Origin: Candidatus Puniceispirillum sp.
GTDB taxonomy: Bacteria; Pseudomonadota; Alphaproteobacteria; Puniceispirillales; Puniceispirillaceae
Length of the DNA: 64,000 bases
Direction: 5' to 3'
Assembly (NCBI GenBank): GCA_028383305.1
Contig: JAOEVD010000003.1
Location: 5,442-69,441 of the forward strand
The notes below the pieces were generated by a model that saw nothing but the letters and a program-made list of their open reading frames with translations, had not been told where the DNA came from and searched no databases. The position numbers were made by a program, and so were the translations under genes. This document shows positions 1 through 46,262 of the stretch, in pieces (the first letter of the stretch is position 1; every line of letters begins with the position of its first letter).

Positions 1-663
1 AAGCGCGGATTGCCGCGTCACCGCCCGCCTTATGTCGCACAGGTTGGTATCTTTAACCGGCCAACATTGGTGCATAATATCGAAACGCTGCACTGGATTA
101 CCCGCATTTGCCGTGAAGGGCCAGAGGTGCTGTCGTCGGTTGAAAAGAACGGGCGGACAGGTCTTCGCAGCTATTCAGTATCGGGCCGTGTGGCAAATCC
201 GGGTGTGCATCTTTTGCCGTCCGGTTCAACTATTACCGATATTATTGAGGCGGCTGGCGGCATGGCCGAAGACCATGTTTTCAAGGCCTATCAACCGGGT
301 GGTCCATCATCAGGCCTGTTGCCTGCCAGCGTGAATGACGTTCCGCTTGATTTTGATACATTGCAACCGCTTGGCACCTTTATTGGGTCGGCTGCGGTGG
401 TGGTGTTGTCGGATCAAGATCGGGTGCGTGACGCGGCGCTGAATATGCTTCGCTTTTTTGAAGATGAAAGCTGTGGTCAATGCACGCCATGCCGCGCCGG
501 TTGCAGCAAGGCGGTTCAGCTGATGCAAGCCGACAAATGGGATCAGCCTTTGTTGCAGGATCTGTGTGATGTGATGCAGGACGCGTCCATCTGCGGATTG
601 GGACAAGCTGCCCCGAACCCTATTCGTTTAACGATGAAACATTTCTCTGAAGAAGTTAGTTGA
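1..663 (+). CDS. NAD-dependent formate dehydrogenase beta (diaphorase, NuoF-like) subunit, 5' partial
   Basis: Frame open from base 1; NuoF C-terminal motifs ESCGQCTPCR and SICGLGQAA (4Fe-4S), GGPSSG; directly upstream of FDH alpha. Confidence 0.9.
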   Translation, partial: KRGLPRHRPPYVAQVGIFNRPTLVHNIETLHWITRICREGPEVLSSVEKNGRTGLRSYSVSGRVANPGVHLLPSGSTITDIIEAAGGMAEDHVFKAYQPGGPSSGLLPASVNDVPLDFDTLQPLGTFIGSAAVVVLSDQDRVRDAALNMLRFFEDESCGQCTPCRAGCSKAVQLMQADKWDQPLLQDLCDVMQDASICGLGQAAPNPIRLTMKHFSEEVS

Positions 664-670
664 GGCCCCC

Positions 671-3454
671 ATGCTAGATTCAACGCCGCAAAAAACCGTA
701 ACCTTTAAACTGGATAGCAAGGATATTTCCGTGCCAGAAGGCGCAACCATTTGGGAAGCGGCACAAGCCCAAGGAACCTTGATTCCACATTTGTGTCACA
801 AGCCCGAGCCCGGGTATCGCTCGGATGGCAATTGCCGTGCCTGTATGGTTGAAATCGAGGGTGAGCGCGTTTTGGCTGCCTCTTGTATCCGGCCGGTACA
901 AGATGGCATGGTGGTGAATACGGCAAGCGAACGCGCCGAGAAATCACGCGCGCTTGTGGTCGAATTGCTGGCGGCAGACCAGCCCAACCAGCCGCATGAT
1001 GCGTCATCACATTTTCTGGATATGGCCGCATTGAATGGTGTGTCTGAAAGCCGTTTTCCGGCGCGTGATGCCTGTCATGTTCCGCTGCTTGACGATAGTC
1101 ATGTGGCGATGAGTGTCAATCTGGACGCCTGTATCCATTGTAACCTTTGCGTTCGCGCTTGTCGTGAAGTGCAGGTGAATGATGTGATTGGCATGGCCGG
1201 ACGCGGTCTCGATGCGCAGATCGTTTTTGATATGAATGATCCAATGGGGCAATCAACCTGTGTTGCCTGTGGTGAATGTGTTCAGGCCTGCCCAACGGGT
1301 GCTTTGATGCCGGCAAGCGTTCTTGATGATGCACAGCATGGCGACAGCAAAGATTTCGATCGCGAAGTCCAGTCAGTTTGCCCTTATTGCGGGGTTGGTT
1401 GCCAGCTTTCCTTAAAAATCAAGGATGATGAAATCAAATATGTTGAAGGGGTGAATGGCCCAGCCAACGAAAACCGGCTTTGTGTAAAGGGGCGGTTCGG
1501 TTTTGACTATGTTCATCACGATCACCGCCTGACCAAGCCATTAATCCGGCGTGATGATGCGCCAGCAAAGGGGCTGAATGTTGATCCGGCAAATGCGTTG
1601 ACGCATTTCCGCGAAGCCAGCTGGGAAGAAGCGCTGGATGCGGCGGCAAACGGCTTTATCAAGCATCGCGATATTTCAGGTAAGCGCATTGCCGGTTTCG
1701 GATCGGCAAAATGTTCGAATGAAGAAGCCTATCTTTTCCAAAAGATGATCCGTCAGGGGTTTGGCCATAATAACGTCGATCATTGTACGCGGCTATGTCA
1801 TGCCTCATCGGTTGCGGCTTTGCTGGAAAATGTGGGTTCGGCTGCGGTTACGGCAACCTTTAACGAAATTGAAAATGCCGACGTCGCCATTGTGATTGGT
1901 GCCAACCCAACCGAAAACCATCCGGTTGCGGCAACCTATTTCAAACAATTTGCCAAACGTGGCGGTAAATTGATTGTGATGGATCCGCGCGGGCAGGGAC
2001 TCCAGCGTCATGCTGCTCATATGTTGCAATTCCGCCCGGGTGCCGATGTGTCAATGCTGAACGCCATCATGCATGTGATTGTCGAAGAACAGCTTTATGA
2101 TCAGCAATATATCGAGAGCTTTACCGAAAACTGGGACGCGATGAAAGCGCATCTCAAAGAATTTTCGCCGGAGAAAATGTCTAAATTCTGCGGCATTGAG
2201 GCGAAAACGCTTCGTGCTGTTGCGCGCGATTTTGCCGGTGCCAAATCAGCGATGATTTTCTGGGGAATGGGCGTGTCGCAGCATATCCACGGAACCGATA
2301 ATTCACGTTGCCTGATTTCGCTGGCTTTGATGTGTGGACAGGTTGGGCGTCTGGGAACCGGCTTGCATCCGCTGCGCGGCCAGAACAATGTTCAGGGCGC
2401 ATCTGATGCGGGTTTGATCCCAATGTTCCTTCCCGATTATCAAAGCGTCACCGATGATGGTGTGCGTTCGGCCTTTAATGAAATTTGGCATTCAGATTCG
2501 ATTGCGCCAGAAAAAGGCCTGACCGTGACCGAAATTATGGATGCAATTCATGATGGTGATATCACTTCGATGTATGTTCTTGGTGAAAATCCGGCTATGT
2601 CCGACCCTGATGCCGATCATGCGCGGGCGGCGCTTGCCAAGCTGGATCATCTGGTTGTGCAGGATATTTTCCTGACCGAGACCGCTAATTATGCTGATGT
2701 GATTTTGCCAGCATCGGCGTGGGCAGAAAAAACCGGAACCGTAACCAATACAAACCGTCAGGTTCAAATGGGTCGTCCGGCCATTGCACCGCCAGGTGAC
2801 GCCCGCGAAGATTGGTGGATTACCGTCGAGCTTGCGAAACGCATTGGTCTTGATTGGACCTATACGCATCCGCGCGAAGTGTTTGCCGAAATGAAACTAT
2901 CGATGAAATCACTTGATAATATCTCATGGGATCGTTTGGCAGCTGAAAATGTTGTTACCTATCCATCACTGGATGAAACTGATCCGGGGCAGCCGATCGT
3001 GTTTGGTGATGGGTTCCCGCGAACTGATGGGCGGGCTAGATTCACCCCTGCCAGTATTATTGCGCCTGCCGAAACACCGGATACAGAATATCCGATGATT
3101 TTGACAACGGGCCGCCAGCTCGAGCATTGGCATACTGGATCAATGACCCGCCGTGCCACAGTGCTGGATGCGGTTGAACCGCAGGCAAATGCCTCACTCC
3201 ATCCGCGCACCCTTCGCCGGTTGGGAGTCGAGGCTGGTGATATGATAACGATTGAAACGCGGCGTGGGTCGATTTCGATCATGGCGCGTGCCGATCGTGC
3301 GGTTGCTGAAGACATGGTCTTTGTGCCATTCGCTTATGTCGAAGCTGCCGCGAATATCTTGACCAATCCGGTTGTTGATCCATTTGGTAAGATACCTGAG
3401 TTCAAATTTGCCGCTTGTCGGGTTGCCGCCACGATGGGCATTGCCGCCGAATAG
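671..3454 (+). CDS. fdhA: Soluble formate dehydrogenase alpha subunit (bis-MGD Mo/W; Fdh1A/FdsA-like)
   Basis: N-terminal 2Fe-2S (HLCH..GNCRACMV), two CxxCxxCxxxC, CPYCGVGC, active site DHCTRLCHA (Cys ligand), PLRGQNNVQG; no Tat signal. Confidence 0.95.
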   Translation: MLDSTPQKTVTFKLDSKDISVPEGATIWEAAQAQGTLIPHLCHKPEPGYRSDGNCRACMVEIEGERVLAASCIRPVQDGMVVNTASERAEKSRALVVELLAADQPNQPHDASSHFLDMAALNGVSESRFPARDACHVPLLDDSHVAMSVNLDACIHCNLCVRACREVQVNDVIGMAGRGLDAQIVFDMNDPMGQSTCVACGECVQACPTGALMPASVLDDAQHGDSKDFDREVQSVCPYCGVGCQLSLKIKDDEIKYVEGVNGPANENRLCVKGRFGFDYVHHDHRLTKPLIRRDDAPAKGLNVDPANALTHFREASWEEALDAAANGFIKHRDISGKRIAGFGSAKCSNEEAYLFQKMIRQGFGHNNVDHCTRLCHASSVAALLENVGSAAVTATFNEIENADVAIVIGANPTENHPVAATYFKQFAKRGGKLIVMDPRGQGLQRHAAHMLQFRPGADVSMLNAIMHVIVEEQLYDQQYIESFTENWDAMKAHLKEFSPEKMSKFCGIEAKTLRAVARDFAGAKSAMIFWGMGVSQHIHGTDNSRCLISLALMCGQVGRLGTGLHPLRGQNNVQGASDAGLIPMFLPDYQSVTDDGVRSAFNEIWHSDSIAPEKGLTVTEIMDAIHDGDITSMYVLGENPAMSDPDADHARAALAKLDHLVVQDIFLTETANYADVILPASAWAEKTGTVTNTNRQVQMGRPAIAPPGDAREDWWITVELAKRIGLDWTYTHPREVFAEMKLSMKSLDNISWDRLAAENVVTYPSLDETDPGQPIVFGDGFPRTDGRARFTPASIIAPAETPDTEYPMILTTGRQLEHWHTGSMTRRATVLDAVEPQANASLHPRTLRRLGVEAGDMITIETRRGSISIMARADRAVAEDMVFVPFAYVEAAANILTNPVVDPFGKIPEFKFAACRVAATMGIAAE

Positions 3455-3705: not shown

Positions 3706-4767
3706 ATGAAACTTTTGATCCTAGGAGCCTCGTATGGCTCACTTCTGTCAACAAAACTATTGATGGCTGGCCATGATGTCACTTTGATCTGCCGCAGCAA
3801 ATCGGCCGCGCTGATTAATGATGAGGGCACTGAAGTCAGAATCAAATTGCGCGATGAAGATAGTCACAGGGCATTTAGGTCTCATGATCTTGCTGGCACG
3901 CTTGATGCGGTCACACCGGCCGATGCGCGGCCTGAAGATTATGACATGATTAGCCTTGCCATGCAGGAACCACAATATTCGGAGCCGCAGGTGCGCGATT
4001 TGATGCAACGCATTGCCGCCAGCCGCAAGCCATGCTTATCGATAATGAATATGCCGCCTTTGCCATTTTTGCGCCGTATCGATGCGCTGGCTGGGGCACC
4101 GCTTGACATGTGCTATGATGATGTGTCGGTTTGGGCAGATTTCGAGCCCGGTCTGATGTCGCTTTGCAGCCCGGACCCTCAGGCTTTTCGTCCACCCGAA
4201 GAAGGCACCAATATTCTTCATGTTGGTCTGCCAACCAATTTTAAGGCAGCGGTATTTGCTGATCTGGCGCATAATGCAATGCTTCGCCAGCTTGAATCCG
4301 ATATTGCCGCGGTTACCGTTGATGGCAAGGATGTGCCGGTAAAGCTGCGCATCTATGACAGCCTGTTTGTGCCAATGGCGAAGTGGAGCATGCTTTTGAC
4401 CGGCAATTATCAATGCGTCCAGCGTGACGGCGTGCGGGCAATTCGCGATGCTGTTCATGGCGATCTTGCTGCCTCGGCGGAAATGTATGCTTGGGTTGAC
4501 ACGCTGGCACGGGCGCTTGGCGCAGATGCGGCTGATCAGGTACCGTTTGACAAATATGCAAATGCAGCTAGCAGCCTGTTAAAGCCGTCCTCAGCCGCGC
4601 GCGCGATTGATGGTGGTGCCAAGACGATCGAGCGTGTTGATTTGCTGGTGCAGCGGGTTGCCGCCAGCATCGGCATGCAGAATGACCTTCTTGACGAGAC
4701 TGTCGCAATTGTGAATGACCGTCTTGATGCCAACCGGTTTGAGGCGCCTTTTTTTAAGGTCGCTTAA
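3706..4767 (+). CDS. Ketopantoate reductase (PanE/ApbA)-like NAD(P)H oxidoreductase
   Basis: Rossmann start MKLLILGASYGSL; GGGGAG RBS before ATG 3706; PanE-like C-terminal pattern (AKW..N, KPSS, ERVD). Confidence 0.65.
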   Translation: MKLLILGASYGSLLSTKLLMAGHDVTLICRSKSAALINDEGTEVRIKLRDEDSHRAFRSHDLAGTLDAVTPADARPEDYDMISLAMQEPQYSEPQVRDLMQRIAASRKPCLSIMNMPPLPFLRRIDALAGAPLDMCYDDVSVWADFEPGLMSLCSPDPQAFRPPEEGTNILHVGLPTNFKAAVFADLAHNAMLRQLESDIAAVTVDGKDVPVKLRIYDSLFVPMAKWSMLLTGNYQCVQRDGVRAIRDAVHGDLAASAEMYAWVDTLARALGADAADQVPFDKYANAASSLLKPSSAARAIDGGAKTIERVDLLVQRVAASIGMQNDLLDETVAIVNDRLDANRFEAPFFKVA

Positions 4768-4865: not shown

Positions 4866-5768
4866 CTAGCCGTTCAGAACATCCACAAGCGTGACGCCAA
4901 GTTTGGCAGGAGACGGTGACACGCGCACTCCTGCGTCTTCTAGCGCCGCAATTTTTTCATCAGCACCGCCCTTACCACCTGAAATAACGGCACCAGCATG
5001 ACCCATGGTGCGGCCAGGCGGTGAGGTGCGGCCAGCGATAAAGCCAACCATCGGCTTTGAACGACCTTTTTTGGCTTCGTCGATCAGGAATTGCGCCGCA
5101 TCTTCTTCGGCTGATCCGCCGATTTCGCCAATCATGATGATCGATTCGGTTTGATCATCAGCAAGGAACATTTCCAAAACATCGATAAATTCAGTGCCTT
5201 TTACCGGATCACCGCCAATGCCGACAGCCGACGACTGGCCAAGACCGGCCATTGATGTCTGATACACTGCCTCATAGGTCAGAGTGCCAGAGCGTGACAG
5301 CACGCCAACCGAACCTTTGCGGAAAATGCTTGGCGGCATGATGCCGATTTTGCATTCGTCAGGTGTCATCAGACCCGGACAGTTTGGCCCGATCAGGCGT
5401 GATTTCGACTTATCCAGCTTTTCCTTTACCCGCACCATATCCTGAACCGGTACACCTTCGGTGATACAGGTAATCAGATCAATGCCAGCATCAATCGCTT
5501 CTTCAATCGCAGCCGCAGCGCCTGCTGGTGGAACATAGATAACCGAGGCGTTGGCGCCAGTGGCGTCCTTGGCTTCGGCAACAGTGGTAAATAGCGGCAG
5601 GCTTTGCCCATCGGCGCTAGTCCACTGCTGGCCACCTTTCTTTGGGTGGGTTCCGGCGAGCATTTGCGTGCCATGATAGGCCAATGCCTGTTCAGTGTGA
5701 AATGTGCCCGTTTTACCAGTCAGACCTTGCACAATGATTTTAGTGTCTTTATTGATGAGAATAGACAT
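4866..5768 (-). CDS. sucD: Succinate--CoA ligase alpha subunit
   Basis: [27 protein letters not shown], phospho-His motif MGHAGA. Confidence 0.95.
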
Positions 5769-5772
5769 GTGC

Positions 5773-6966
5773 TTAGCCTTTCACTGCTTTGACAATTTTT
5801 TGAGCTGCATCATCCAAATCATCGGCGGCGATAACATTCAGCCCACTGCTGTTGATAATGGCTTTGCCTTCATCGACCTTGGTGCCTTCGAGGCGAACCA
5901 CCAAAGGCACTTTAAGATTGATATCCTTAGCCGCTTGGACAACGCCCTCGGCAATAACATCACAACGCATGATGCCGCCAAAAATATTGACCAAAATCCC
6001 TTTTACATTTGGATCAGCGGTAATGATTTTAAAGGCTGCGGTAACGCGTTCGGTTGTTGCGCTGCCGCCAACATCAAGAAAGTTTGCTGGCTCGGCGCCA
6101 TATAGCTTGATGATGTCCATTGTGGCCATCGCAAGACCGGCACCATTGACCATACAGCCAATTTCACCATCAAGAGCGATATAGGCAAGGTCATATTTTG
6201 AGGCTTCGACTTCTTTTTCATCTTCTTCAGTAATGTCGCGTAATTCTATAACATCGGGATGCCGGAACAGCGCGTTGTTATCAAAAGACACTTTGGCATC
6301 AAGCACCTGAACATCATTTGATTTGGTGATGATCAACGGGTTGATTTCCAAAAGGCTCATATCCTTGCTGACAAAAGCCTCGAAAAGATTCTTGAAAAGC
6401 GCCATGCCCTGTTCGCGCGCTGACCCCTCAAGCTTTAACGCATTAGCGAGTGTTGCCGCGTCGGCATCAGTGCAGCCAGTGCTAGCGTTAATGCCAACTG
6501 AATGAATCAGTTCAGGCGTGTCATGTGCAACCGTCTCAATATCCATGCCGCCTTCGGTTGAGGCGACGAAAGAGGTTTTGCCGGTTTCGCGGTCAACGAG
6601 GATCGACAGATATAATTCACGGTCAATATCAGCGCCATCTTCGACATAAAGCTGATTGACGGCTTTGCCATTTGGGCCGGTTTGCTGTGTCACGAGGGTT
6701 TTGCCAAACATTTCAACAGCATTGGCAAGGGCTTCCTCAGCCGAGAAAGAGACGCGAACGCCACCTTTGGCATCAACGCCAAGTTCCTTGAATTTTCCTT
6801 TTCCGCGTCCGCCAGCATGGATCTGGCTTTTGACCACCCATACTGGGCCGGGAAGGGATGCAATTGCGCTTTTGGCTTGGTCAAGGCTGGTGATTGCGAC
6901 GCCAGCAGCAATGGGCGCACCAAATGTCTGTAAAATTTTCTTCGCCTGATGTTCATGGATATTCAT
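5773..6966 (-). CDS. sucC: Succinate--CoA ligase beta subunit
   Basis: Start MNIHEHQAK at 6966; [35 protein letters not shown]. Confidence 0.95.
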
Positions 6967-7163
6967 TGTTACTGTCTTTCTCCCGCTATGTGGCCTTGTG
7001 TGATAAAGCCACAAAAATTGCAACGATCGATCTGTTCTCACATATCTACGCAAAAAATGCACACAAGTTTTTTACGCAACAGTTTTGGTGAAACTGCCTT
7101 ACGACATATCAGTCAAATCGGGTCGTTGTTTTGCCTCATATTTTGCAATATTCCTGCTTTATA

Positions 7164-7257
7164 TGGTATGCCACACACCACTAATAGCAAGCGCTATCGT
7201 TAAACTATCGTTCTAAAAACCGCTTGACGAGTGTTATGTCAGGTGTAAGGTATACCA
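7164..7257. promoter_or_regulatory. Divergent sucC/gntR control region with two GntR(FadR)-type boxes and a sigma70-like promoter
   Basis: TGGTATGCCA (7164-7173) and AGGTATACCA (7248-7257); TTGACG at 7224 with TAAGGT at 7246. Confidence 0.5.
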
Positions 7258-8166: not shown

Positions 8167-9879
8167 ATGACTTCATCCGAGACACAGGCGCTAACTGACG
8201 GTTTTCACCTCGTTATTGATGCGCTTAAGCTCAATGATATCAACACAATTTACGGTGTGCCGGGTATTCCGATCACCGATCTTGGCCGGATTGCTCAAGC
8301 TGAGGGCATGCGGGTGATTTCCTTCCGTCATGAACAGCATGCTGGCAACGCAGCATCGATTGCCGGTTATCTGACCAAAAAGCCGGGCATCTGCCTAACC
8401 GTGTCGGCACCAGGATTTTTGAACGGTCTGACCGCGCTTGCCAATGCCACCACAAATTGTTTCCCGATGATCCTGATCAGTGGCTCATCCGAGCGTGAGA
8501 TTGTCGATTTGCAGCAAGGTGACTATGAAGAAATGGACCAGCTGGCCATTGCCAAGCCACTTTGTAAGGCGGCCTTCCGCGTTCTTCACGCTGAAGATAT
8601 CGGCATTGCTGTTGCCCGCGCCATTCGTGCCGCGGTTTCAGGTCGTCCGGGCGGTGTTTATCTTGATCTACCAGCCAAATTATTCGCCCAAGTCATGGAT
8701 GCGGCTGAAGGCCAGAAATCACTTGTCAAAGTCGTTGATCCAGCACCGCAGCAATTGCCATCACCTGATTCGATTGCGCGTGCGCTTGATGTGCTGAAAA
8801 GTGCAAAACGTCCATTGATCATTCTTGGTAAAGGCGCTGCCTATGCGCAACAAGACGAAATCGTGCGCAGCTTTGTTGAAAAAAGTGGCGTTCCGTATCT
8901 GCCGATGAGCATGGCCAAAGGTCTGCTGCCTGATGATCACCCGCAATCAGCTGGTGCCGCACGTTCGCTGGTGCTAAAAGAGGCTGATGTTGTTGTCATG
9001 GTTGGGGCGCGTTTGAACTGGCTGTTGTCGCATGGCAAGGGCAAAAGCTGGGGCGAGCCCGGATCGAAACGCTTTATTCAGGTTGATATCGAGCCGCGCG
9101 AAATGGACAGCAATGTCGAGATTGCAGCACCCGTCGTTGGCGATATCGGATCATGCTTAAGCGCCATGACCAAGGCGATGGGCGATAAATGGCCAGCTGT
9201 TCCTGCCGATTGGATTGCCAATATCCAGACGCGCAAAGATGTGAATCTGGAAAAAATGTCAGCCAAGCTTATGAGCAACACAGTGCCAATGGATTTCCAT
9301 AGTGCTCTTGGTGCGCTTCGCACGATCGTCAAGCAGCGTCCTGATGCGATCCTTGTGAATGAGGGTGCAAACACCCTTGATTTCGCGCGGAGTATCATTG
9401 ATGTGTTTAAGCCGCGCAAGCGTCTTGATGTTGGCACATGGGGTATTATGGGTATCGGCATGGGCGCAGCTGTTGCTGCGGCGGTCGAGACTGGCCTGCC
9501 CGTTTTGGCCGTTGAAGGCGATAGCGCTTTTGGATTTTCGGGCATGGAGATCGAAACGATCTGCCGCTATAATTTGCCCGTCTGTGTTGTTGTGTTCAAC
9601 AATAACGGCATCTATCGCGGTACCGATCAAAACCCGACAGGTGGCGAAGACGTCGCCCCGACCGTGTTTGTCAAAGATGCCCGCTATGACCAAATGATGG
9701 CTGCCTTTGGTGGTGTTGGCGTTTATGCGACGACACCGGATGAGCTGACGCGCGCGGTGAATGAAGCAATGGATAGTGGCAAGCCAACCTTGGTCAATGC
9801 TGTCATTGATGAAAATGCCGGTACGGAAAGTGGTCGCATCGGTAACTTGAACCCACAAAGTGTGGTTTCAAAGAAATAG
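8167..9879 (+). CDS. oxc: Oxalyl-CoA decarboxylase
   Basis: [26 protein letters not shown], ThDP motif [14 protein letters not shown]-terminal [10 protein letters not shown]. Confidence 0.96.
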
Positions 9880-9921: not shown

Positions 9922-11181
9922 ATGAAAGCTCTTCAAGGTATTAAAGTTCTGGATTTCACCCATGTTCAGTCAGGCCCAACCTGTACTCAGCTTCTGGCTT
10001 GGTTTGGCGCGGATGTTATCAAGGTTGAGCGTCCGGGTGTCGGTGATGCAACGCGCCAGCAACTCGTCGATGTTGAAGGGGCCGACAGCCTCTATTTCAC
10101 CATGTTGAACCATAATAAACGGTCAATTGAGCTGAATTCTAAAAACGAAACCGGCAAGCAGATTTTGACCCGTCTTATCGAAACTTGTGATGTTCTTGTG
10201 GAAAATTTTGCCCCGGGCGCGCTTGACCGGATGGGCTTTACATGGGAGCGGATTCAAGAAATCAATCCGCGCCTGATCATGGCGTCAATCAAAGGCTTTG
10301 GCCCGGGCAAATATCAAGATTGCAAGGTTTATGAAAATGTCGCGCAATGTGCGGGTGGTTCGGCCTCAACAACCGGTTTTCGTGATGGCCCGCCATTGGT
10401 GACAGGCGCGCAGATTGGTGATTCGGGAACTGGTCTTCATTTGTGCCTTGGCATTGTAACCGCGCTGTTCCACCGCGAAAAATCTGGTCGTGGCCAAAAA
10501 GTCACTGCGGCGATGCAGGATTCGGTTCTAAACCTTGCCCGCGTAAAGCTTCGTGATCAGCAGCGTCTTGCTGCTGGCCCATTGAAAGAATATTCACAAT
10601 TCGGCGAAGGCATTCCATTTGGTGATGCCACGCCGCGCGCTGGCAATGATTCAGGTGGCGGACAGCCCGGACGCATTCTGCGTTGTAAAGGGTGGGAGCA
10701 AGATCCAAACGCCTATACCTATTTTATCATTCAGGCGGCAGTCTGGGAAAAGGTTTGCGATATCATTGGCGAACCTGATTGGAAAACCAAAGAAGGTTAT
10801 GCCAAGCCACCACAGCGGCTCGATAAATTGAACGAGATTTTTGAGCGTATTGAACAATGGACAATGACCAAGACTAAATTTGAGGTCATGGATGCATGTA
10901 ACCCGCTTGATATTCCGGTTGGTCCGATCTTGTCGATGAAAGAAATTGCCGAAGATGAAGGTCTTTATGCGACCGGAACTTTGGTAAAGGTCGATCATCC
11001 AAAGCGCGGCGAATATATCTCGGTTGGCTGTCCGATAAAATTATCCGACAGTCCGGCTGATGTTCAGCGCTCGCCATTACTTGGTGAGCATACAACCGAA
11101 ATCCTGACGGATGTTCTTGGTTATTCAGCCGAAGAGCTGGCTCAAATCATCGAATCAGGCGCGGTTGGCGCGGCTAAATAA
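9922..11181 (+). CDS. frc: Formyl-CoA:oxalate CoA-transferase
   Basis: [16 protein letters not shown], catalytic [16 protein letters not shown] loop; adjacent to oxc. Confidence 0.95.
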
Positions 11182-11257: not shown

Positions 11258-12172
11258 ATGAGAATTGTATTACACGGACAGCAGGCTTTTGGTCAGGCTG
11301 TTTTAGAAAGACTTTTAGAACGCGGCGAAGATGTTGTTGCGGTTTGTTGTGCGCCGACAAAAGAGGGGAAACCTGAAGACCCATTGGTCGAGCTGGCGCG
11401 TGAAAAGGGTTTGCCCGTGCATCAGCCTGCATCATGGAAAACCCCTGAAGCATTGACGTTGATGCAATCATTTAATGCTGATGTTTGTATGATGGCATAT
11501 GTGTTGTTGTTTGTGCCGCAGGAAGTGCGCGATGCGCCAAAATATGGAACTTTTCAGTATCATCCTTCGCTTTGTCCAGAACATCGCGGACCGTCTTCGA
11601 TCAACTGGCCGATTGCAATGGGAAAAACCCGCACTGGCTTGTCTATTTTCTGGCCTGATGATGGTCTTGACGAAGGCCCTATGATGTTGCAGAAAACCTG
11701 TGAAATCGGCCCTGATGAAACGCTTGGTGATGTTTATTTCAAAAAGCTGTTCCCAATGGGCGTTGATGCGATGATTGAGGGGCTTGAACTGGTCAAGGCT
11801 GGCGTCATCATCAAGCATGACCAGCGTTTGGAAGATGGTTCATATGAAAGCTGGTTTGGTAAAGCGGCTGCTGAGATTGATTGGTCAAAGCCGGTTGCCG
11901 ATGTTTACAATATTATCCGTGCCGCCAACCCTGCGCCCGGGGCGTGGACAACAATTGCTGGCAGTGAATTGAAAATTTATGACAGTGCGCGCGTTGGCGG
12001 TACGGGAACGGCTGGTGAAGTCGTTTCGGTTGACGAAGGTGGCGTGACGGTACAGGCCGAAGGTGGACGGATTTTAATCAAGCGTGTACGGCCTGCCAAT
12101 GGTGGAAAAATAGCGGCAAGCGAATGGGCTGCTGCTGCTGGAATTAACTCTGGAACAAAGTTAGGATCATAG
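11258..12172 (+). CDS. Formyltransferase resembling the N-terminal domain of 10-formyl-THF dehydrogenase (ALDH1L1)
   Basis: [47 protein letters not shown]; FMT fold with ALDH1L1-type signatures. Confidence 0.8.
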
Positions 12173-13851: not shown

Positions 13852-13920
13852 GCTTGATCTTACTGATAAGGCTCATAAGCTTTCGGTTGAGTAATTTAAC
13901 ATTCTTTGGGTAGAAAATTC

Positions 13921-16455: not shown

Positions 16456-16484
16456 TCACTGCGCGGATAACTGAGGAATAAAGA

Positions 16485-33144: not shown

Positions 33145-33291
33145 ATCCGTTCAAACCGTCACCTTTTTTTGGTTTACATCTGTTTAAAGATTGTTTCCAA
33201 AATTTGTAAAAATCTTTCCAAATGAGAACTGTTGCATTGCGGGGGTGGTTTTGATGTGTTAGCGTTTTGTATACAGAATTAGGATCGTTGA

Positions 33292-33906: not shown

Positions 33907-33965
33907 CGTAAGGCTCCTGTTTTATAGAGTCACACATGAGGTGTGGCACATTTTTGGAGGGAAAA

Positions 33966-34163
33966 ATGGAAGATACAAACAAAAAAGATGCAGTTGCAGG
34001 TCGTCGTGACTTCCTCAAGGGTTCTGCAGTATCTGTTGCGGCTGTCGGTGTGGTAGCGGTTGCAGGTAAATCAGCATCAGCAGGCGAAGTTGAAGTGGTG
34101 TCAGGTTCTGGCTACCGCGAGACGGAACATGTTAAAGCGTTTTACGCTTCAGCAAGGTTTTAA
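33966..34163 (+). CDS. Small twin-arginine signal protein preceding FDH alpha
   Basis: RRDFLKG, GYRETEHVKAFY; GGAGG RBS. Confidence 0.8.
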   Translation: MEDTNKKDAVAGRRDFLKGSAVSVAAVGVVAVAGKSASAGEVEVVSGSGYRETEHVKAFYASARF

Positions 34164-34194
34164 TTAGCTTTTCTTGTTTTTTTAGGAGGATAAC

Positions 34195-37086: not shown

Positions 37087-37097
37087 GGGAGGTACAC

Positions 37098-37688
37098 ATG
37101 GCAAGAATGAAATTCCTATGTGATGCAGAACGCTGTATCGAATGTAACGCCTGTGTTACTGCATGTAAGAACGAGCATGAGGTGCCGTGGGGTGTAAATC
37201 GTCGTCGGGTGGTTACCATCCAAGACGGTAAGCCTGGCGAACGCTCAATCTCTGTTGCATGTATGCATTGCTCAGACGCGCCTTGCACGGCCGTTTGTCC
37301 TGTCGATTGTTTCTATCAGACCGAACAAGGTGTGGTTTTACATTCAAAGGATCTTTGCATTGGCTGTGGTTATTGCTTCTACGCATGTCCTTTCGGGGCA
37401 CCGCAATATCCACAGGCTGGTAACTATGGTTCACGTGGCAAAATGGACAAATGTACATTCTGCGCAGGTGGTCCAGAAGAAGATATGAGCAGTCTGGAGT
37501 TCCAGAAATACGGACGTAACCGTCTGGCTGAAGGCAAGCTGCCAATTTGTGCAGAAATGTGTTCAACTAAGGCGTTGCTCGCAGGTGATGGAGACCAAGT
37601 CTCTAACATCTTCCGTGAGCGTATTGTTGCCCGTGGATTTGGCTCTGGCGCTTGGGGATGGGGCACTGCCTATTCCATCAAGGGCTAA
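37098..37688 (+). CDS. fdhB: Formate dehydrogenase Fe-S beta subunit (Fdh3B-like)
   Basis: Four 4Fe-4S motifs (CIECNAC, CMHC, CIGCGYC, CTFC). Confidence 0.93.
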   Translation: MARMKFLCDAERCIECNACVTACKNEHEVPWGVNRRRVVTIQDGKPGERSISVACMHCSDAPCTAVCPVDCFYQTEQGVVLHSKDLCIGCGYCFYACPFGAPQYPQAGNYGSRGKMDKCTFCAGGPEEDMSSLEFQKYGRNRLAEGKLPICAEMCSTKALLAGDGDQVSNIFRERIVARGFGSGAWGWGTAYSIKG

Positions 37689-37706
37689 TCAGCGATCATA
37701 AAATAA

Positions 37707-37742
37707 GGTGGATCCCCTGTAGTGGGGGTTCACCCCTTTTTC
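37707..37742 (+). terminator. Hairpin/terminator between fdhB and downstream genes
   Basis: GGTGGATCCCC-TGTAGT-GGGGGTTCACC then CCTTTTTT. Confidence 0.6.
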
Positions 37743-37808
37743 TTATTAATTCCGCCCAAGATACAGAGCAGCTATATGCGCTCTGCTTCTAGGGTTTGTG
37801 AGGGGCAA

Positions 37809-38009
37809 ATGATTGCAATCACTCGTAAATTTTTAGTTCTTTTAGCGCTGACTGCGGTTGTGACCGGCTTGTCGGCTTGTGCTGAAGAAGAACAGAACCG
37901 GGTTCTCAGCTATAAAAAGGGAACCTATCTAGGTGAAACGGATCAGCAATTGTCTGAAGACCAGCTGCGTACGCTGATCAATCGTTCAAATGCTCAGCGC
38001 GTTTATTAA
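37809..38009 (+). CDS. Small lipoprotein in FDH operon
   Basis: Lipobox LSAC; EEQNR..YKKGTYLG. Confidence 0.7.
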   Translation: MIAITRKFLVLLALTAVVTGLSACAEEEQNRVLSYKKGTYLGETDQQLSEDQLRTLINRSNAQRVY

Positions 38010-38042
38010 ATGCGCGATTTAAAGCTAGGGAGACCGGGGAAT

Positions 38043-39098
38043 ATGTTACGCAAATATTTAGGTGTTTTGGCCATTCTTGCGGCGTTGTTTATCAGCACAA
38101 CAGGAACTGTTTCGCCAGCAATGGCTCAGACAAATGGTGAGGTGCCTGGCACCGCGCTCGGTATCAAGTCTGATACAGATTTATGGCGCTTTGTGCGGAC
38201 TGGTAATGCCGGTTCGACACAAATGAAAGACGAATTATCGGCCGTGATGATCCAATCCGAAGGCGATAATTGGCGTGCCTTTCGCAACGGTCCATTATCG
38301 GTTTATGGCGCTTACGGCCTGGCTGGTATCATTGGCTTGCTTGTTGTTTTCTATATGGTCCGCGGCCGGATCACAATCGATGCGGGCCCATCCGAAGACA
38401 GGATTATGCGGTTTGGAACGATTGACCGGTTTGCCCATTGGCTGATGGCTGGTTCTTTTGTTGTTTTGGGAATAACCGGCTTGAATTTGCTTTATGGTCG
38501 TTATGTTCTTTTGCCAATTATCGGCAAAGACGCCTTTGCGACCATCACCACATTTGGGAAATATGCGCACAATTATCTGGCTTTTGCCTTTATGCTTGGT
38601 TTGGGTCTGGCGTTTATTTTGTGGGTTCGCCACAATATCCCAAACAAGCTTGACCTAAAATGGTTGGCCATGGGCGGCGGTATCTTTGCCAAAGGCGTTC
38701 ATCCACCAGCGCGTAAATTCAATGCAGGTCAGAAAATCATTTTCTGGGCAGTGATGATTGGTGGCCTTTCGGTCAGTATGTCAGGCATTGCGCTGATGTT
38801 CCCATTCCAGACAAGTATGTTTGCGGAAACATTCGCCTTGTTGAACAGCATTGGCTTTAGCCTGCCAACCGATTTCACACCGCTTCAAGAACAGCAGATG
38901 AATCAGCTTTGGCATGGTGTGGTGTCACTCGGCCTTATGACCATGATTGTTGCGCATATCTATATCGGTTCTGTTGGTATGGAAGGCGCTCTTGATGCGA
39001 TGAATTCAGGTATGGTTGATCGTAACTGGGCGAAAGAGCATCATAATCTTTGGGTTGAAGAAGAAGACCAAAAAGTCAACCCAAAGCCTGCTGAATAA
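38043..39098 (+). CDS. fdhC: Formate dehydrogenase gamma subunit (cytochrome b556) with N-terminal extension
   Basis: RFAHW, AHNY, KFNAGQK, WHG, AHIY, WAKEHH. Confidence 0.92.
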   Translation: MLRKYLGVLAILAALFISTTGTVSPAMAQTNGEVPGTALGIKSDTDLWRFVRTGNAGSTQMKDELSAVMIQSEGDNWRAFRNGPLSVYGAYGLAGIIGLLVVFYMVRGRITIDAGPSEDRIMRFGTIDRFAHWLMAGSFVVLGITGLNLLYGRYVLLPIIGKDAFATITTFGKYAHNYLAFAFMLGLGLAFILWVRHNIPNKLDLKWLAMGGGIFAKGVHPPARKFNAGQKIIFWAVMIGGLSVSMSGIALMFPFQTSMFAETFALLNSIGFSLPTDFTPLQEQQMNQLWHGVVSLGLMTMIVAHIYIGSVGMEGALDAMNSGMVDRNWAKEHHNLWVEEEDQKVNPKPAE

Positions 39099-39108
39099 TT
39101 GATGTCTA

Positions 39109-40500
39109 TTGACGCTTAGGTGTTCAATGCCATCTTGTTATTACATCTTCAAAACAGCCAGCTCATCTTTGGGCTGGCTGTTCCTATGTCTGAGTTTGAT
39201 TGGTTTGGTGCCAATCGCAGCATCTGCCTTTGACCGTTACACTGCACATGGTGGGCCGGTCCGTGATTTGGCACTTTCGCCTGATGGAAAGCATTTTGTC
39301 ACCGCCAGTTTTGACTATTCAGCAGTGTTATGGTCAGCCGATGAGATTGCTGAGAAATCGACTTTAATCGGGCATGAAGCGGCGCTGAATACAGCGCAGT
39401 TTTCGCCTGACGGGAAATGGCTTGCCACCGGCGGTGATGATGGTCTTGTTCTTGTCTGGAACACCGATAAATTGACCGATGAATCGGCTGAGCCAATTAT
39501 TCTTCGTGGTCATAGAGGCAAAATCGTTCATCTTGCCTTTTCTGCCGATAATCGAATGCTTGCCTCGGCCAGTTGGGATGGATCAATCGGTATCTGGCCA
39601 TTGGATGGGGGGGCGGAAAAGGCCGAATCCAGCGTCCGTTTTATTAAGGGACACGAGGGGCCAGTTAATGCAGTTCAGTTCTCCGATGACAGCCAGTTTC
39701 TTTACAGCGCTGGATATGATGGCCAGATCCGCTATTGGCGCTTGGCAAATGATGAATATCTTCGAAGCGTTGTGAAAAACGGCTGGAGCGTTTCGGTATT
39801 TGTCGTTGATGAAGCGCGTGACCTTGTTGCATTTGGATCATCCGATGGTGTGATGAGCGTTTCGCGCATGTCAGATCAGACTGAATTGCTGCGCGTTGGC
39901 GATGAACGCGTGCCTGTTCTATCAATTTTTTATCATGCTGATGAAGGGTTTTTGGGGTTTGGCAATGCCAAGGGGCGAGTGCTTCTTGCCGATACCAAGG
40001 ACTGGTCGGTCATTCGTGATTTCCATGCGGCCAATGGCCCGATTTGGAGCTTGCTTGTTATGCCAGATGCGCAATCGCTGATGGTTGCGGGTCTTGATGA
40101 TTTTATCACACGCTGGCCGATTTTTGAGTTTCCCCCCGAATTTTTGGAAAAGCCCGGCCCAGCACGCCGGTTTCACCCAAAACAGGAAGTTAGCAACGGT
40201 GAGCGTCAATTTGCGCGGAAATGCAGCGTTTGCCATACTTTAAAGGCTGATGGCAAACGCCGCGCCGGACCAAGCCTGTTTGGTGTGTTTGGTCGGCAGG
40301 CTGGTGGGCTTGAAGGCTATCCCTATTCGAAAGCATTGCAGACATCTGATATTGTTTGGAGTGCAGCAACTATTAACCAGCTATTTGAAGAAGGGCCTGA
40401 CAAGGTTACGCCCGGAACAAAAATGCCAATCCAGCGGATGAAAAACGCCAAAGATCGTGAAGATCTTGTGACGTTCTTGCAATCTGCAACACAAAAATAG
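39109..40500 (+). CDS. WD40 beta-propeller fused to C-terminal cytochrome c2-like domain
   Basis: Repeated GH..V..FS.D..SAS.DG repeats; CSVCH, GPSL.G, PGTKM. Confidence 0.88.
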   Translation: MTLRCSMPSCYYIFKTASSSLGWLFLCLSLIGLVPIAASAFDRYTAHGGPVRDLALSPDGKHFVTASFDYSAVLWSADEIAEKSTLIGHEAALNTAQFSPDGKWLATGGDDGLVLVWNTDKLTDESAEPIILRGHRGKIVHLAFSADNRMLASASWDGSIGIWPLDGGAEKAESSVRFIKGHEGPVNAVQFSDDSQFLYSAGYDGQIRYWRLANDEYLRSVVKNGWSVSVFVVDEARDLVAFGSSDGVMSVSRMSDQTELLRVGDERVPVLSIFYHADEGFLGFGNAKGRVLLADTKDWSVIRDFHAANGPIWSLLVMPDAQSLMVAGLDDFITRWPIFEFPPEFLEKPGPARRFHPKQEVSNGERQFARKCSVCHTLKADGKRRAGPSLFGVFGRQAGGLEGYPYSKALQTSDIVWSAATINQLFEEGPDKVTPGTKMPIQRMKNAKDREDLVTFLQSATQK

Positions 40501-42982: not shown

Positions 42983-43999
42983 ATGGATAATGTAGTACTG
43001 CCAAAAACCCTTATCGATCCATTTGGCCGGACGGTTGATTATATCCGTGTGTCGGTTACCGACCGCTGCGATTTTCGCTGTGTCTATTGCATGGCCGAAC
43101 ATATGACCTTTTTGCCGAAGGCTGAATTATTGTCGTTGGAAGAGTTGGAACAGGTTTGCCGCAATTTTATGGCTCTTGGTACACGCAAAATTCGGTTAAC
43201 CGGTGGTGAACCTTTGGTGCGCCGCAATATCATGCATCTGGTCCGCAATCTTGGTAACGAGGTCAAAGCAGGCAATCTTGACGAGTTGACCATCACCACA
43301 AATGGCAGCCAATTGCATAAAATGGCGGATGAACTTGTTGATGCTGGCGTTAAGCGGCTGAATATCTCAATTGATACGCTTGATCCTGATAGGTTTCGCG
43401 AAATTACCCGTTGGGGCGATCTTGATAATGTTCTTGAAGGGCTGGAAGTTGCAAAACGTGCCGGACTTGCGATCAAGCTAAACGCGGTTGCCTTAAAAGG
43501 TGTCAATGAATTTGATCTCGGCAATATGGTGGCATGGGCCGGCGATCAAGGTTTTGACATGACCATCATTGAGGTTATGCCAATGGGTGATATCGGCAAT
43601 GAAAACCGTGTTGATCAATATCTACCGCTTTCACAAGTGCGTGCCGAATTGTCAAAACGTTTCACCCTGACCGATAATAATTTCCAAACCCCCGGGCCGG
43701 CGCGCTATGTGACGGTTGAAGAAACCGGTCGCCGCCTTGGCTTTATCACACCGCTGACACATAATTTTTGTGAATCATGCAACCGTGTTCGGGTGACTTG
43801 CACTGGCCAGCTTTATATGTGTCTTGGTCAGGATGATAATGCTGATCTTGCCAGGGCACTTCGTAATGATGGCGAAGACGGGTTGCGCGATGCCATTATT
43901 GAAGCCATTAGCCGGAAACCAAAAGGGCATGATTTTGTCATTAGCCGGCGTGCACCAAATGCGGCAGTTGCGCGGCATATGAATGTAACCGGAGGTTAG
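42983..43999 (+). CDS. moaA: GTP 3',8-cyclase
   Basis: [17 protein letters not shown]-terminal GG. Confidence 0.97.
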
Positions 44000-44002
44000 C
44001 CG

Positions 44003-44545
44003 ATGACTGAGGCGCGTCTTATCCGTCCCGGTAGGCATGGCGCCATATTCGGGTTGGCGGGCTGGTCTGGTTCAGGCAAAACCACGCTTGTTGAAAAAGT
44101 CATTTCCCATATCAGCGCTAGCGGGGTCGACGTTGCCACGATCAAACATGCGCATCATCATTTTGATGCTGATCACCCGGGAAAAGATAGCTATCGCCAT
44201 CGCGAGGCAGGATCGCGGCAGGTTCTAGTGTCATCGGCCTATCGGTCGGCGCATTTTATTGAACATGGCGAAAGAGGCGAGCCTGATCTATCCGTTCTGC
44301 TTGACCAATTGGCACCGGCTGATCTGGTTCTTGTTGAAGGCTTTAAAAGCTATCCTATTGAAAAAATAGAAGTTCACCGGCCATCTATTGGTAAATTACA
44401 CCTTTATCCAAATGACGATCTGGTGATTGCCTTAGCAAGTGATGAGCCGATTCTGGAATGTCCATTACCGTTTTTCAACCTTGAAGATGTTGCCGGAATT
44501 GCGGCTTTTATTCTGGTGCAAACAAAGTTGAAACAGGCGAGCTAG
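44003..44545 (+). CDS. mobB: Molybdopterin-guanine dinucleotide biosynthesis protein B
   Basis: GWSGSGKTT, IKHAHH, GKDS, LVEGFK. Confidence 0.93.
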   Translation: MTEARLIRPGRHGAIFGLAGWSGSGKTTLVEKVISHISASGVDVATIKHAHHHFDADHPGKDSYRHREAGSRQVLVSSAYRSAHFIEHGERGEPDLSVLLDQLAPADLVLVEGFKSYPIEKIEVHRPSIGKLHLYPNDDLVIALASDEPILECPLPFFNLEDVAGIAAFILVQTKLKQAS

Positions 44546-44549
44546 GGCC

Positions 44550-45785
44550 ATGTCCAACCAACGGACGGCTCCCATTCCCATTGATTTGGCACGAAGCCAA
44601 TTGCTTGCCAGCATTGATGCGATTACGGCGACCAAAATTCTGTCACTTGATGATGCATGTGGCAGGATCGCCGCTGAAACCATTACCAGCTTGATTGATT
44701 TGCCCCGAACGCATAACGCTGCAGTTGATGGTTATGGTGTTGATTCGACGGAACTGGCCGCAGCGCCCGATAAACCGTTTAAAATAATTGGTGTGGCGCG
44801 GGCTGGACATCCTTTTGATGGGGTGATCGGCGTTGGGGAAGCCATTGAAATCTACACTGGTTCGGTTATGCCGTCTGGCCCTGATTGCGTTGCCATGCAT
44901 GAAGATTGCACTCGTACCGGCGATGCGGTGGTGATTGCGGCGAATTTATCAAAGGCAAGCAATATGCGCCCGCCTGGTGAAAATCTGGCCAAAGGCGAGA
45001 TTGTTATCAATAAGGGGCAAGTGATTACGCCAGCTTTGATAGGCCAGCTTGCCGCATCGGGAACAGCACAAATAGAGGTTGCTCGCCGCCTTCGCGTTGC
45101 CGTTATGTCAACCGGCGATGAGGTTGTGGCCGCTGGTGCTGACGCCGCGCATGGACAAATTTTCGATGCAAACCGTCCGATGCTGAAAGCCATGTTGCAA
45201 AGCAATCAGATTGAGTTGATTGATTGCGGTATCGTTCCTGATCGGCTGGATGCGCTTGCCGATGCTTATGAACAGGCTTTGCAAATGGCTGATGTTGTCA
45301 TTTCGTCAGGCGGTGCGTCAGACGGCATTGAAGATCATAGCCAGCAGGCCATGCGGCAAGTTGGGGCGAGCTGTACATTTTGGCGTTTGGCAATGAAGCC
45401 GGGGCGTCCAATGGCAGTGGGGCGGCGTGGAAAACAGCTTATTTTCTGCCTTCCCGGAAACCCGGTTGCGGCTTTTGTTTGCACGCGCTTATTGATCAAT
45501 CCGGTTTTTACGTGTCTTTTGGGTGGCATTGTTCAGCCGATTTTAAAAATTGGCGTTCCTGCCGGATTTACGCATCGCAAAAAACCGGGTCGTGCTGAAT
45601 TTTTACGGGTTGTTCTTGTTGATGAAGGTGACGGGCAGGTTCTGCACCTTCATGGCCGTAAAGGGGCAGGGGTGATTTCATCATTGACCGGTGCGGATGG
45701 TCTTGTTGAAATCCCTCTTGAGAATGCTGGTGTCGACAAGGGCTTGATGTTGAATTTTCTGCCATTTCATGAACGTGGCCTTTAG
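44550..45785 (+). CDS. moeA: Molybdopterin molybdo/tungstotransferase
   Basis: AAVDGY, STGDE, SGGAS, MKPGRP, LPGNP. Confidence 0.93.
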   Translation: MSNQRTAPIPIDLARSQLLASIDAITATKILSLDDACGRIAAETITSLIDLPRTHNAAVDGYGVDSTELAAAPDKPFKIIGVARAGHPFDGVIGVGEAIEIYTGSVMPSGPDCVAMHEDCTRTGDAVVIAANLSKASNMRPPGENLAKGEIVINKGQVITPALIGQLAASGTAQIEVARRLRVAVMSTGDEVVAAGADAAHGQIFDANRPMLKAMLQSNQIELIDCGIVPDRLDALADAYEQALQMADVVISSGGASDGIEDHSQQAMRQVGASCTFWRLAMKPGRPMAVGRRGKQLIFCLPGNPVAAFVCTRLLINPVFTCLLGGIVQPILKIGVPAGFTHRKKPGRAEFLRVVLVDEGDGQVLHLHGRKGAGVISSLTGADGLVEIPLENAGVDKGLMLNFLPFHERGL

Positions 45786-45809
45786 GCCGGTCATAAGGTG
45801 AGGGATAAA

Positions 45810-46262
45810 ATGAGCGTAAGAATAACCGAAGATGATTTTGATATTGCGCTTGAGCATGAAAAGCTGAAATCGCGTGACGCTGGGGCAATTGTCACCTTTA
45901 CCGGAACTGTCCGCGATCTGCCAAATGGTGGCGGGTTGAGCGCGATGACGCTTGAACATTATCCAGGCATGACCGAATCTGAAATTGAAATGATCATTGA
46001 TCAGGCAAAATTACGCTGGCCCTTGGAAAAGGTCACGGTAATTCATCGTGTTGGCCGGATGTTGACAACCGAAAATATCGTTTTTGTTGGCTGTTCTTCG
46101 GCGCATCGCGGGGCGGCGTTTGACGGTGCCAATTTCATTATGGATTTTCTAAAAACCAAAGCACCATTCTGGAAATTGGAAGACGGGCCTGATGGCGCAA
46201 AATGGGTTGATGCGCGTGATTCTGACAACAAAGCGCTTGATCGCTGGAACCTGCCGGAATAG
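45810..46262 (+). CDS. moaE: Molybdopterin synthase catalytic subunit
   Basis: EHYPGM, HRVG, HRG.AF, KTKAPFWK.E. Confidence 0.95.
   Translation: MSVRITEDDFDIALEHEKLKSRDAGAIVTFTGTVRDLPNGGGLSAMTLEHYPGMTESEIEMIIDQAKLRWPLEKVTVIHRVGRMLTTENIVFVGCSSAHRGAAFDGANFIMDFLKTKAPFWKLEDGPDGAKWVDARDSDNKALDRWNLPE

Follow-up and report, generated by a model that had tools for sequence, protein, structure and literature searches.

Does a 46-kb run of oxalate, formate and molybdopterin genes in a marine bacterium form one dedicated metabolic unit, or do separate units adjoin there? This question was raised by a stretch of 64,000 nucleotides from Candidatus Puniceispirillum sp. (G000:C23:5442-69441, where G000 is the assembly holding it and C23 its contig), which is called the window below. 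A sequence-only reading had described its positions 1..46262 as an integrated oxalate-to-formate island with three formate exits and its own cofactor supply. All gene classes named in that description were present, namely oxc-frc, a transporter, cytoplasmic and periplasmic formate dehydrogenases (FDH1 and FDH3), fhs with a formyltransferase gene, tupA/modE and moa/mob/moe genes. However, we consider it likely that the 46-kb "island with three exits" was a conserved oxalate regulon of ~21 kb next to an ordinary FDH3 and cofactor module.

The G000 assembly (2.41 Mb, 49% guanine-plus-cytosine (GC), 84% complete) was treated as that of a SAR116-type marine alphaproteobacterium. It was compared with three samples: an order-level sample of 61 genomes, G000 included (42 of them in a high-quality subset), a class sample of 301 evenly drawn alphaproteobacterial genomes, and 80 formyltransferase loci, the best of 256 relatives, many of which lay on short contigs and were taken with 10-kb flanks. 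Two genomes were complete, G008 from the same genus and G049 from another family. The core gene set and its predicted operators were as follows (CoA, coenzyme A; THF, tetrahydrofolate).

C23:4337-4352, outside the window: predicted operator ~60 bases before fdhB, 21.3 bits
1..663, + strand: 3' end of fdhB1, NAD-linked FDH beta subunit (NuoE/NuoF-type fusion, 563 aa), starting at C23:4413, ~1 kb before the window
671..3454, + strand: fdhA1, alpha subunit of the cytoplasmic NAD-linked FDH, with Cys376, His377 and Arg569 (TIGR01591, 731.9 against 666.25)
3706..4767, + strand: orf3688, unannotated oxidoreductase of the ketopantoate-reductase fold, only in frc-positive genomes
4866..6966, - strand: sucD and sucC, the only copy found, of a lineage common to oxalate operons of other families and not to same-family oxc-negative genomes
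7161..7176: predicted GntR operator 1, core TGGTATGCCA, between sucC and gntR, 20.3 bits
7245..7260: predicted GntR operator 2, core AGGTATACCA, between sucC and gntR, 18.3 bits
7319..8065, + strand: gntR, GntR/FCD regulator, adjoining the formyltransferase gene in 66/80 loci
8167..9879, + strand: oxc, oxalyl-CoA decarboxylase (TIGR03254, 1005.9 against a cut-off of 739.4 bits)
9922..11181, + strand: frc, formyl-CoA:oxalate CoA-transferase, with Asp167 (TIGR03253, 697.8 against a cut-off of 504.2 bits)
11258..12172, + strand: stand-alone homologue of the ALDH1L1 N-terminal domain (His102, Asp138), candidate 10-formyl-THF:CoA formyltransferase
12175..13851, + strand: fhs, formate-THF ligase, only copy found
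13906..14778, + strand: universal stress protein gene (usp), 30/80 loci
14844..18005, + strand: tctC-tctB-tctA, transporter of the tripartite tricarboxylate family and candidate oxalate importer (tctA in 40/80 loci)
18041..19840, + strand: zeta-family-like P-loop kinase, 599 aa, last gene of the conserved unit (22/80 loci)

The Frc/Oxc route is textbook oxalotrophy, and the closest structures of the window Frc were YfdW and the O. formigenes-type FRC, i.e. formyl-CoA:oxalate CoA-transferases. The window Oxc kept all of E56, Y120, E121, Y483, S555 and R557, the key positions given in the available text of PMC10192776. As far as the sequences can tell, Oxc and Frc very probably act on oxalate. 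The titled loci closest to the formyltransferase (94-98% identity) were labelled Ca. Puniceispirillum or uncultured Alphaproteobacteria, and SAR116 records came next. The earlier reading of an oxalate pathway in a marine bacterium was supported in this respect, here for a marine alphaproteobacterium. For the FDH1 alpha subunit, the nearest solved structure was a tungsten-containing FDH (7vw6/8j83; 1342 bits, compared with ~605 for the next FDHs). It also had the Cys ligand and the fused NuoE/F beta subunit of such enzymes, and the cytoplasmic FDH is likely to use tungsten.

The gene order fdhBA-orf3688-sucDC-gntR-oxc-frc-formyltransferase-fhs-(usp)-tctCBA-kinase was kept in the other family (G049, G043 and G037). 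Its inner part recurred in Kiloniellaceae, Pelagibius, Denitrobaculum, Thalassobaculum, Aurantimonas, Palleronia, Brevirhabdus and Hyphomicrobiaceae. Among the 80 formyltransferase loci, frc was a neighbour in 76, oxc in 59 and fhs in 58, besides gntR (66) and tctA (40). Canonical oxc was found in 13 of the 301 class-sample genomes, 11 of which also had the formyltransferase.

A palindrome, TGGTATACCA, was located upstream of gntR. In 61 usable loci it was exact in 39 and had at most one mismatch in 50, whereas 200 base shuffles averaged 0.43; 21 loci had two sites. A matrix was trained on 45 loci with the SAR116-type loci left out, and the fdhB site was in no training set. When it was ranked over the whole G000 genome, the three core sites came first and the next best match reached 15.0 bits. 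Predicted sites at both fdhB and sucC/gntR recurred in G008, G011, G002, G049 and G043. G037 had one predicted site per place, seen across two separate stretches, and G013, where the FDH1 genes were in pieces, had only the gntR pair. Thus, a conserved palindrome preceded both the regulator and its presumed targets, as is expected of a GntR/FadR regulon. By contrast, no match of at least 9 bits was found at FDH3, tupA/modE or the moa genes in G000, and none lay near these genes in G008, G013 or the FDH3 region of G049. A weak 13-bit match at 20256 in G000 fell inside a broken ABC (ATP-binding cassette) transporter gene. A scan of 6900-8250 for sigma-70 promoters and terminators gave no excess over shuffles. 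The predicted operator drew the same boundary as synteny, with the core set inside and FDH3 and the moa genes outside. The core set from C23:4337 to window position 19840 (~21 kb) was therefore, by both lines, a predicted single GntR regulon. In this respect the earlier grouping of the NAD-linked FDH and fhs with oxc-frc held, and FDH1 can be regarded with good probability as the co-regulated formate sink. In G012, gntR was split and diverged (G012:C8:16857-17334), no site of at least 11 bits was left within 36 kb, and oxc, frc and the FDH genes were intact; a shift to unregulated expression is possible in this genome.

The sequence-only reading had also drawn the periplasmic FDH and the tungsten and molybdenum genes into the same module. 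These features were as follows (ORF, open reading frame).

23290..24669: orphan tupA (- strand) and modE (+ strand), belonging with the periplasmic FDH module; they adjoin the FDH3 block in oxc-negative G042
24770..33906: FDH3 accessory block with DUF3144, a small c-type-cytochrome-like ORF, DUF6494, Mrp/ApbC, BPL-like, DUF6505, DUF6352, polyferredoxin, DUF3305, DUF3306 and TorD-like genes
33936..40500, + strand: periplasmic FDH3, namely a small twin-arginine ORF, alpha (RRAFL signal, Cys198), beta, a small ORF, cytochrome b gamma and a WD40-cytochrome c gene; the FDH with its cytochrome b spans 34195-39098
42983..46262, + strand: moaA-mobB-moeA-moaE, general molybdopterin genes, an incomplete set

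The beta and gamma subunits of FDH3 scored 341 against 240 bits and 138 against 116 bits, respectively, and the twin-arginine motif read VDRRAFL. The gene at 39109-40500, encoding a WD40 beta-propeller with a C-terminal cytochrome c, also stood right after FDH3 gamma in G008, G013, G049 and G042.

If the whole 46 kb were one co-regulated module, FDH3 would be a real formate exit and the tungsten and molybdenum genes would be dedicated to it. Adjacency would be useful since both FDHs need the pterin cofactor, and formic acid, as is generally known, could exit even with no channel of its own. The complete genome of G008 kept the order from fdhB to moaE over the whole span, and G011 and G013 kept most of it. 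Hence the cluster was not an assembly chimera. The block kept across families was the core set. Besides lacking the operator, FDH3 assorted independently of oxc. Among the 61 genomes, 24 had oxc and 28 had FDH3 alpha; 9 had both, 15 only oxc, 19 only FDH3 and 18 neither (Fisher p 0.31), and the 42 high-quality genomes gave 8/10/12/12 for the same classes. In G049, oxc was located at 2.33 Mb, far from the FDH3 block (0.31-0.33 Mb), while oxc-negative G042 had FDH3, its accessory block, tupA, modE, mobB and moeA intact. In the 80 formyltransferase loci FDH3 lay beyond the reach of the 10-kb flanks, and its absence there is not evidence. There was also no identified route for cytoplasmic formate to the periplasmic enzyme, because neither OxlT (best score 61 of 335 bits, in G000) nor a FocA-type channel was found over cut-off in any of five genomes. 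Nor did the claimed "own cofactor supply" stand. Of the genes in the span, moaA, mobB and moaE were sole copies, while moaC (C23:122170), mobA (C26), moaD (C1, just below cut-off) and a complete tupABC (C11) lay elsewhere. Thus, the cofactor genes here were a partial general-purpose set, in a genome with ~10 matches to the xanthine dehydrogenase family. A single module over 46 kb is very improbable. From their sequence and distribution, FDH3 with its accessory block and the moa genes are predicted to be a separate formate-respiration and cofactor module that is adjacent in this genus.

The term "island" did not fit the composition of the span either. The GC content of the region equalled that of the genome (0.491 in both), and the tetranucleotide deviation of six 10-kb blocks fell between the 2nd and 57th percentile of 203 genome windows. 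No tRNA gene (ARAGORN), integrase or transposase was found among the 59 ORFs scanned, flanking direct repeats not being searched, and the Rfam and tRNA scans of the window had no matches. In addition to moaA, mobB and moaE, no second copy of sucC, sucD or fhs was found in G000. The oxc gene was present in 15 of 19 other genomes of the same genus, in none of 17 from other genera of the family and in all 8 from another family. The window SucC was 84% identical to the operon-linked copy of the other family, compared with 61-63% within its own family and 59-63% to oxc-negative genomes of the order. It grouped in the tree with the oxalate-linked SucC of Palleronia and Brevirhabdus, and sucC was single in both G008 and G049. 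Operon-linked Fhs proteins of different families likewise resembled each other (84-88%) more than they did most stand-alone copies from the same family. Between-family identity was judged from these single-gene SucC and Fhs comparisons; a comparison of operon with background identity was set aside since it included shadow ORFs and non-orthologues. The trees were built with FastTree without topology tests, and they are not used here to name a donor or the direction of a transfer. The distribution and SucC identity fit an old transfer of the core block, though not of the 46 kb, in which the ancestral sucCD would have been replaced; differential loss is also possible.

The least familiar member of the core set was the formyltransferase. 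This 304-aa ORF contained only the Formyl_trans_N and _C domains, with no fused carrier or aldehyde dehydrogenase domain. The active-site His and Asp of the N-terminal formyl-transfer domain were present, and we presume that His102 and Asp138 are catalytic. An identity as Met-tRNA formyltransferase was rejected: the protein scored 133.3 against a cut-off of 201.5 bits (TIGR00460), had QYHPSL in place of NxHxSL, fell outside the Fmt clade, and a separate fmt-type gene was found on C12. The N domain of ALDH1L1 was both its best sequence match (E 2e-56) and its best fold match (PDB 1s3i, 4qpd). In a 94-sequence tree rooted on the fmt-type protein of G000, it belonged to one clade with ALDH1L-type fusions (support 1.0), apart from the Asn-x-His FMTs. 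Homologues with at least 42% identity were found in 27 of the 301 class genomes, separated by a clear gap from those with at most 35%, and frc in 29. Both genes occurred in 25 genomes from 19 families, the formyltransferase alone in 2, frc alone in 4 and neither in 270. Among 59 longer homologues, 49 contained an Fhs domain (37 of them of 878-898 aa), 5 a CoA-transferase piece, 1 an Oxc/2-hydroxyacyl-CoA-lyase-type domain and 4 other sequence. The five apparent fusions to Frc were set aside, as the three examined looked like frameshift read-throughs. A single eukaryotic transcriptome protein (P0041, 920 aa) was a natural-looking fusion to the Oxc/2-hydroxyacyl-CoA-lyase-type thiamine enzyme.

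CoA has the same phosphopantetheine arm as the carrier on which ALDH1L1 works. In ALDH1L1 the formyl group is carried on this arm (PMC8748788), and according to the available text of PMC11730586, LctF forms formyl-CoA from 10-formyl-THF in vitro. Taken together with the sequence relationships above, it is reasonably likely that the window formyltransferase moves formyl between THF and CoA. The Frc/Oxc cycle is catalytic in formyl-CoA and needs priming, for which E. coli uses YfdE, and the half-life of formyl-CoA was reported as 1.9 h (both from the part of PMC3720670 available). No YfdE-type gene was found over cut-off in five genomes. We consider the priming direction, formate + ATP + CoA giving formyl-CoA, slightly more likely than harvesting, in which formyl-CoA gives 10-formyl-THF. 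Of the three formate exits proposed earlier, the third therefore needs rewording: fhs and the formyltransferase were there, but the latter is more likely a link between formyl-CoA and folate than a simple exit.

It could be argued that the formyltransferase substitutes for PurU, hydrolysing 10-formyl-THF to formate and THF and feeding methyl-derived C1 units to FDH without any role of CoA. Its nearest structures were deposited as a "hydrolase domain", PurU was below cut-off in G000, G008, G049 and G023, and the gene stayed in the operon when fhs moved off. On the other hand, one would hardly expect a hydrolase to follow the distribution of frc (25 of 27 genomes) or to be fused to a thiamine enzyme that produces formyl-CoA, and its fusion to Fhs would make an ATP-wasting cycle. 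Moreover, G023 lacked both PurU and oxc, which indicates that PurU loss was independent of the operon. We regard this role as rather improbable. A separate observation on the same genes was that none of the 8 genomes searched from the f4 family had fhs and that G042 had PurU, while the fhs-positive genomes tested had no PurU. A more general doubt concerns the substrate, because the operon might serve internal oxalate or a 2-hydroxyacyl-CoA that gives formyl-CoA, with TctCBA carrying another carboxylate. The tct-gntR-X-frc-formyltransferase frame had a different thiamine enzyme in place of Oxc in 9 class-sample genomes and in 6 or more of the 80 loci. This enzyme scored under both cut-offs and most resembled PRK05858 and the actinobacterial 2-hydroxyacyl-CoA lyase family, so that the substrate of the operon family may not always be oxalate. 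The specificity of TctC, too, could be a different one. For the window itself such a role is still clearly improbable, given its canonical Oxc with the six key residues, the structures nearest to Frc and the linkage of the transporter to the operon across many genera.

The substitute thiamine-diphosphate enzyme is worth recording in its own right. It was found at L119:11309-13111, L137:11213-12886 and at least 13 similar loci, with 64-81% mutual identity, ~25% identity to Oxc and scores below all NCBIfam cut-offs. Two 1.4-Mb genomes (G085 and G346) had the operon with this enzyme, again with sucCD adjoining.

Returning to an oxalate regulon with a THF:CoA formyltransferase, several observations weigh against it or narrow it. 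The replacement of oxc in those 9 genomes is one of them, and the lack of PurU just mentioned fits a plain hydrolase. By TM-score (template modelling score), the formyltransferase model fitted FMT as well as ALDH1L1 (0.89-0.93 and 0.84-0.89, respectively). Four of the 29 frc genomes had no formyltransferase, and in 9 of the 25 genomes with both, the two genes did not adjoin. The fhs gene was out of the operon in G012, G013 and L046 (elsewhere in the genome in G012 and G013), and oxc-negative relatives commonly had it as well (48 of 61). Only 3 of 12 loci outside SAR116 had the operator before fdhB. Finally, the co-occurrence counts treat related genomes as independent, and the genome searches scored 4-7 candidates per genome.

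Since OxlT was not found, TctCBA became the candidate importer, and on balance it probably carries oxalate. At least 8 other TctA-like matches in the genome speak less well for this assignment, and TctC had only distant solved relatives, so that oxalate is a putative ligand. Only 3 of the 301 class genomes, each of them with frc, had the kinase (18041-19840 in the window), and in most of its 22 loci the gene followed tctA directly. Its similarity to plant calmodulin-dependent NAD kinase-like clusters (Atlas, 0.87) is a lead only. That the divergent sucCD are co-regulated with the operon and act as a second thioester source has slightly less than an even chance.

The product of orf3688 was modelled with a pLDDT (predicted local distance difference test score) of 88.5 and the ketopantoate-reductase fold. 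The top matches were D-mandelate dehydrogenase and ketopantoate reductases (TM 0.60-0.69) with 9-16% identity to solved structures, and the family occurred in 9 of the 301 class genomes, all frc-positive. Because of this fold, and because malate synthase G was present and no glyoxylate carboligase was found over cut-off, orf3688 is a candidate oxalyl-CoA reductase that would give glyoxylate for malate synthase. This function is possible, though unlikely. It scored 20.8 against the PanE cut-off of 141.35 bits (TIGR00745), and the proposal is weakened by a 53% paralogue in an unrelated cluster on C11. That paralogue (G000:C11:33684-34730; L151:17652-18740) was surrounded by genes for an FAA hydrolase, an aspartate-dehydrogenase-like protein, PrpF, a cupin, a PEP-mutase-family protein and two transporter sets of the tripartite tricarboxylate family.

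A further source of information was metatranscriptome contigs from 23 runs, 16 of which were recorded as RNA; none contained half of the sequence words. The contigs of 4 of the 23 runs covered 29-30 of 30 bins of both 3500-21100 and 21100-41000. The summed contig depth peaked over tctC and the FDH3 alpha and beta genes in some runs and was flat in X2. Since contig depth cannot rank genes and carry-over of DNA is possible, no claim of expression or co-induction is drawn from it. Just upstream of fdhB (G000:C23:1149-3043; L153) were genes for a four-carbon-sugar-acid-kinase-like protein (SBD_N/NBD_C) and a class II aldolase. At 20011-21013 there was an ABC transporter remnant in which a truncated binding protein (170 aa) abutted the 3' part of a permease. 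It was absent in G008. From 20531 on, contigs of three runs no longer matched the window and had a long loose end, pointing to a deletion in this genome. Outside the 46-kb span, positions 54010-63998 held an amine-oxidase/DUF1365/cyclopropane-fatty-acid-synthase cluster and, with lower GC, a TonB receptor and a periplasmic-binding ABC set like those for B12 or iron uptake.

The proposed mechanism can be put together as follows. TctCBA would take up oxalate, and Frc and Oxc would convert it via oxalyl-CoA and formyl-CoA to formate and CO2. The cytoplasmic, likely tungsten-containing FDH1 would then oxidise formate to give NADH, so that the cell would gain energy through the NADH made by FDH1 and not through antiport by OxlT. 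Fhs and the formyltransferase would interconvert formate and formyl-CoA via 10-formyl-THF. By making formyl-CoA from formate, ATP and CoA they would top up the labile catalytic thioester, and in reverse they would let C1 units into folate. The full combination proposed for abundant SAR116-type plankton, with import of dissolved oxalate by a tripartite tricarboxylate transporter instead of OxlT, Fhs and formyltransferase as a previously undescribed two-enzyme ATP-linked formate:CoA ligase, one GntR regulon and an own succinyl-CoA synthetase that displaced the ancestral one, is tentative, and its chance of holding as a whole is somewhat below even.

If the proposal is true, oxalate would be a source of energy and C1 units for a widespread, streamlined marine lineage. 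Surveys by oxlT or canonical oxc would miss part of this metabolism, as no OxlT was found here and many sister operons have another thiamine enzyme in place of Oxc. In central metabolism, the formyltransferase would link folate to CoA by formyl transfer, as a bacterial counterpart of the first step of ALDH1L1. Together with Fhs it would also convert formate to formyl-CoA in a simple way, which would be attractive for synthetic C1 pathways. From the predicted operator one can read which genes are expected to react to oxalate and which are not. An oxc clade of marine Alphaproteobacteria has already been published (PMC10192776; also PMC13409138). The main text of PMC10192776 names neither SAR116 nor Puniceispirillum, and its supplementary oxc tree may list SAR116; the available parts of PMC9476978 and PMC8305402 added nothing on this operon. 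A literature search that omitted most subscription papers and supplements found no paper on the operon, its operator, an oxalate importer of the tripartite tricarboxylate family or the formyltransferase in oxalate metabolism.

In comparison with known systems, FDH3 was an ordinary member of the periplasmic FDHs with a DUF3305/DUF3306/TorD/Mrp block, with the same accessory order in G049 and G042, and no difference was found. The core set shared adjacent canonical Oxc and Frc, their key residues and formate as product with the Frc/Oxc systems of Oxalobacter formigenes, E. coli (yfdXWUVE) and Cupriavidus oxalaticus. Unlike in those systems, no OxlT or YfdE was found here, and the set included TctCBA, an ALDH1L1-like formyltransferase with Fhs, divergent sucCD and a GntR palindrome common with FDH. 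The best structural matches of Oxc (7ayg) and the FDH alpha subunit (7vw6, tungsten), which we take to be Methylorubrum extorquens enzymes, and the NuoE/F fusion of the beta subunit were points of likeness to that species. It reportedly has an oxalyl-CoA reductase, PanE2. The oxalyl-CoA reduction route of M. extorquens is cited in PMC3720670. Here, in contrast, the genes were clustered under one predicted operator, and orf3688 belonged to a distant family of the same fold rather than to PanE. As described above, the N domain of ALDH1L1 was the best sequence and fold match of the formyltransferase, with aligned active-site His and Asp, in one clade apart from FMT. The window protein differed in standing alone at 304 aa with no carrier or ALDH domain, and free CoA would replace the protein-bound phosphopantetheine. 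The formyltransferase domain of HypX, which is of the FMT fold, presumably also passes the formyl group of 10-formyl-THF to CoA, and it was distant from the window protein (E ~1e-8). LctF of lactacystin biosynthesis, likened here by function and not by sequence, is an FMT-fold enzyme that carries out the same transfer (PMC11730586). Those two enzymes serve hydrogenase maturation and secondary metabolism, respectively, whereas the formyltransferase described here would work in central oxalate catabolism.

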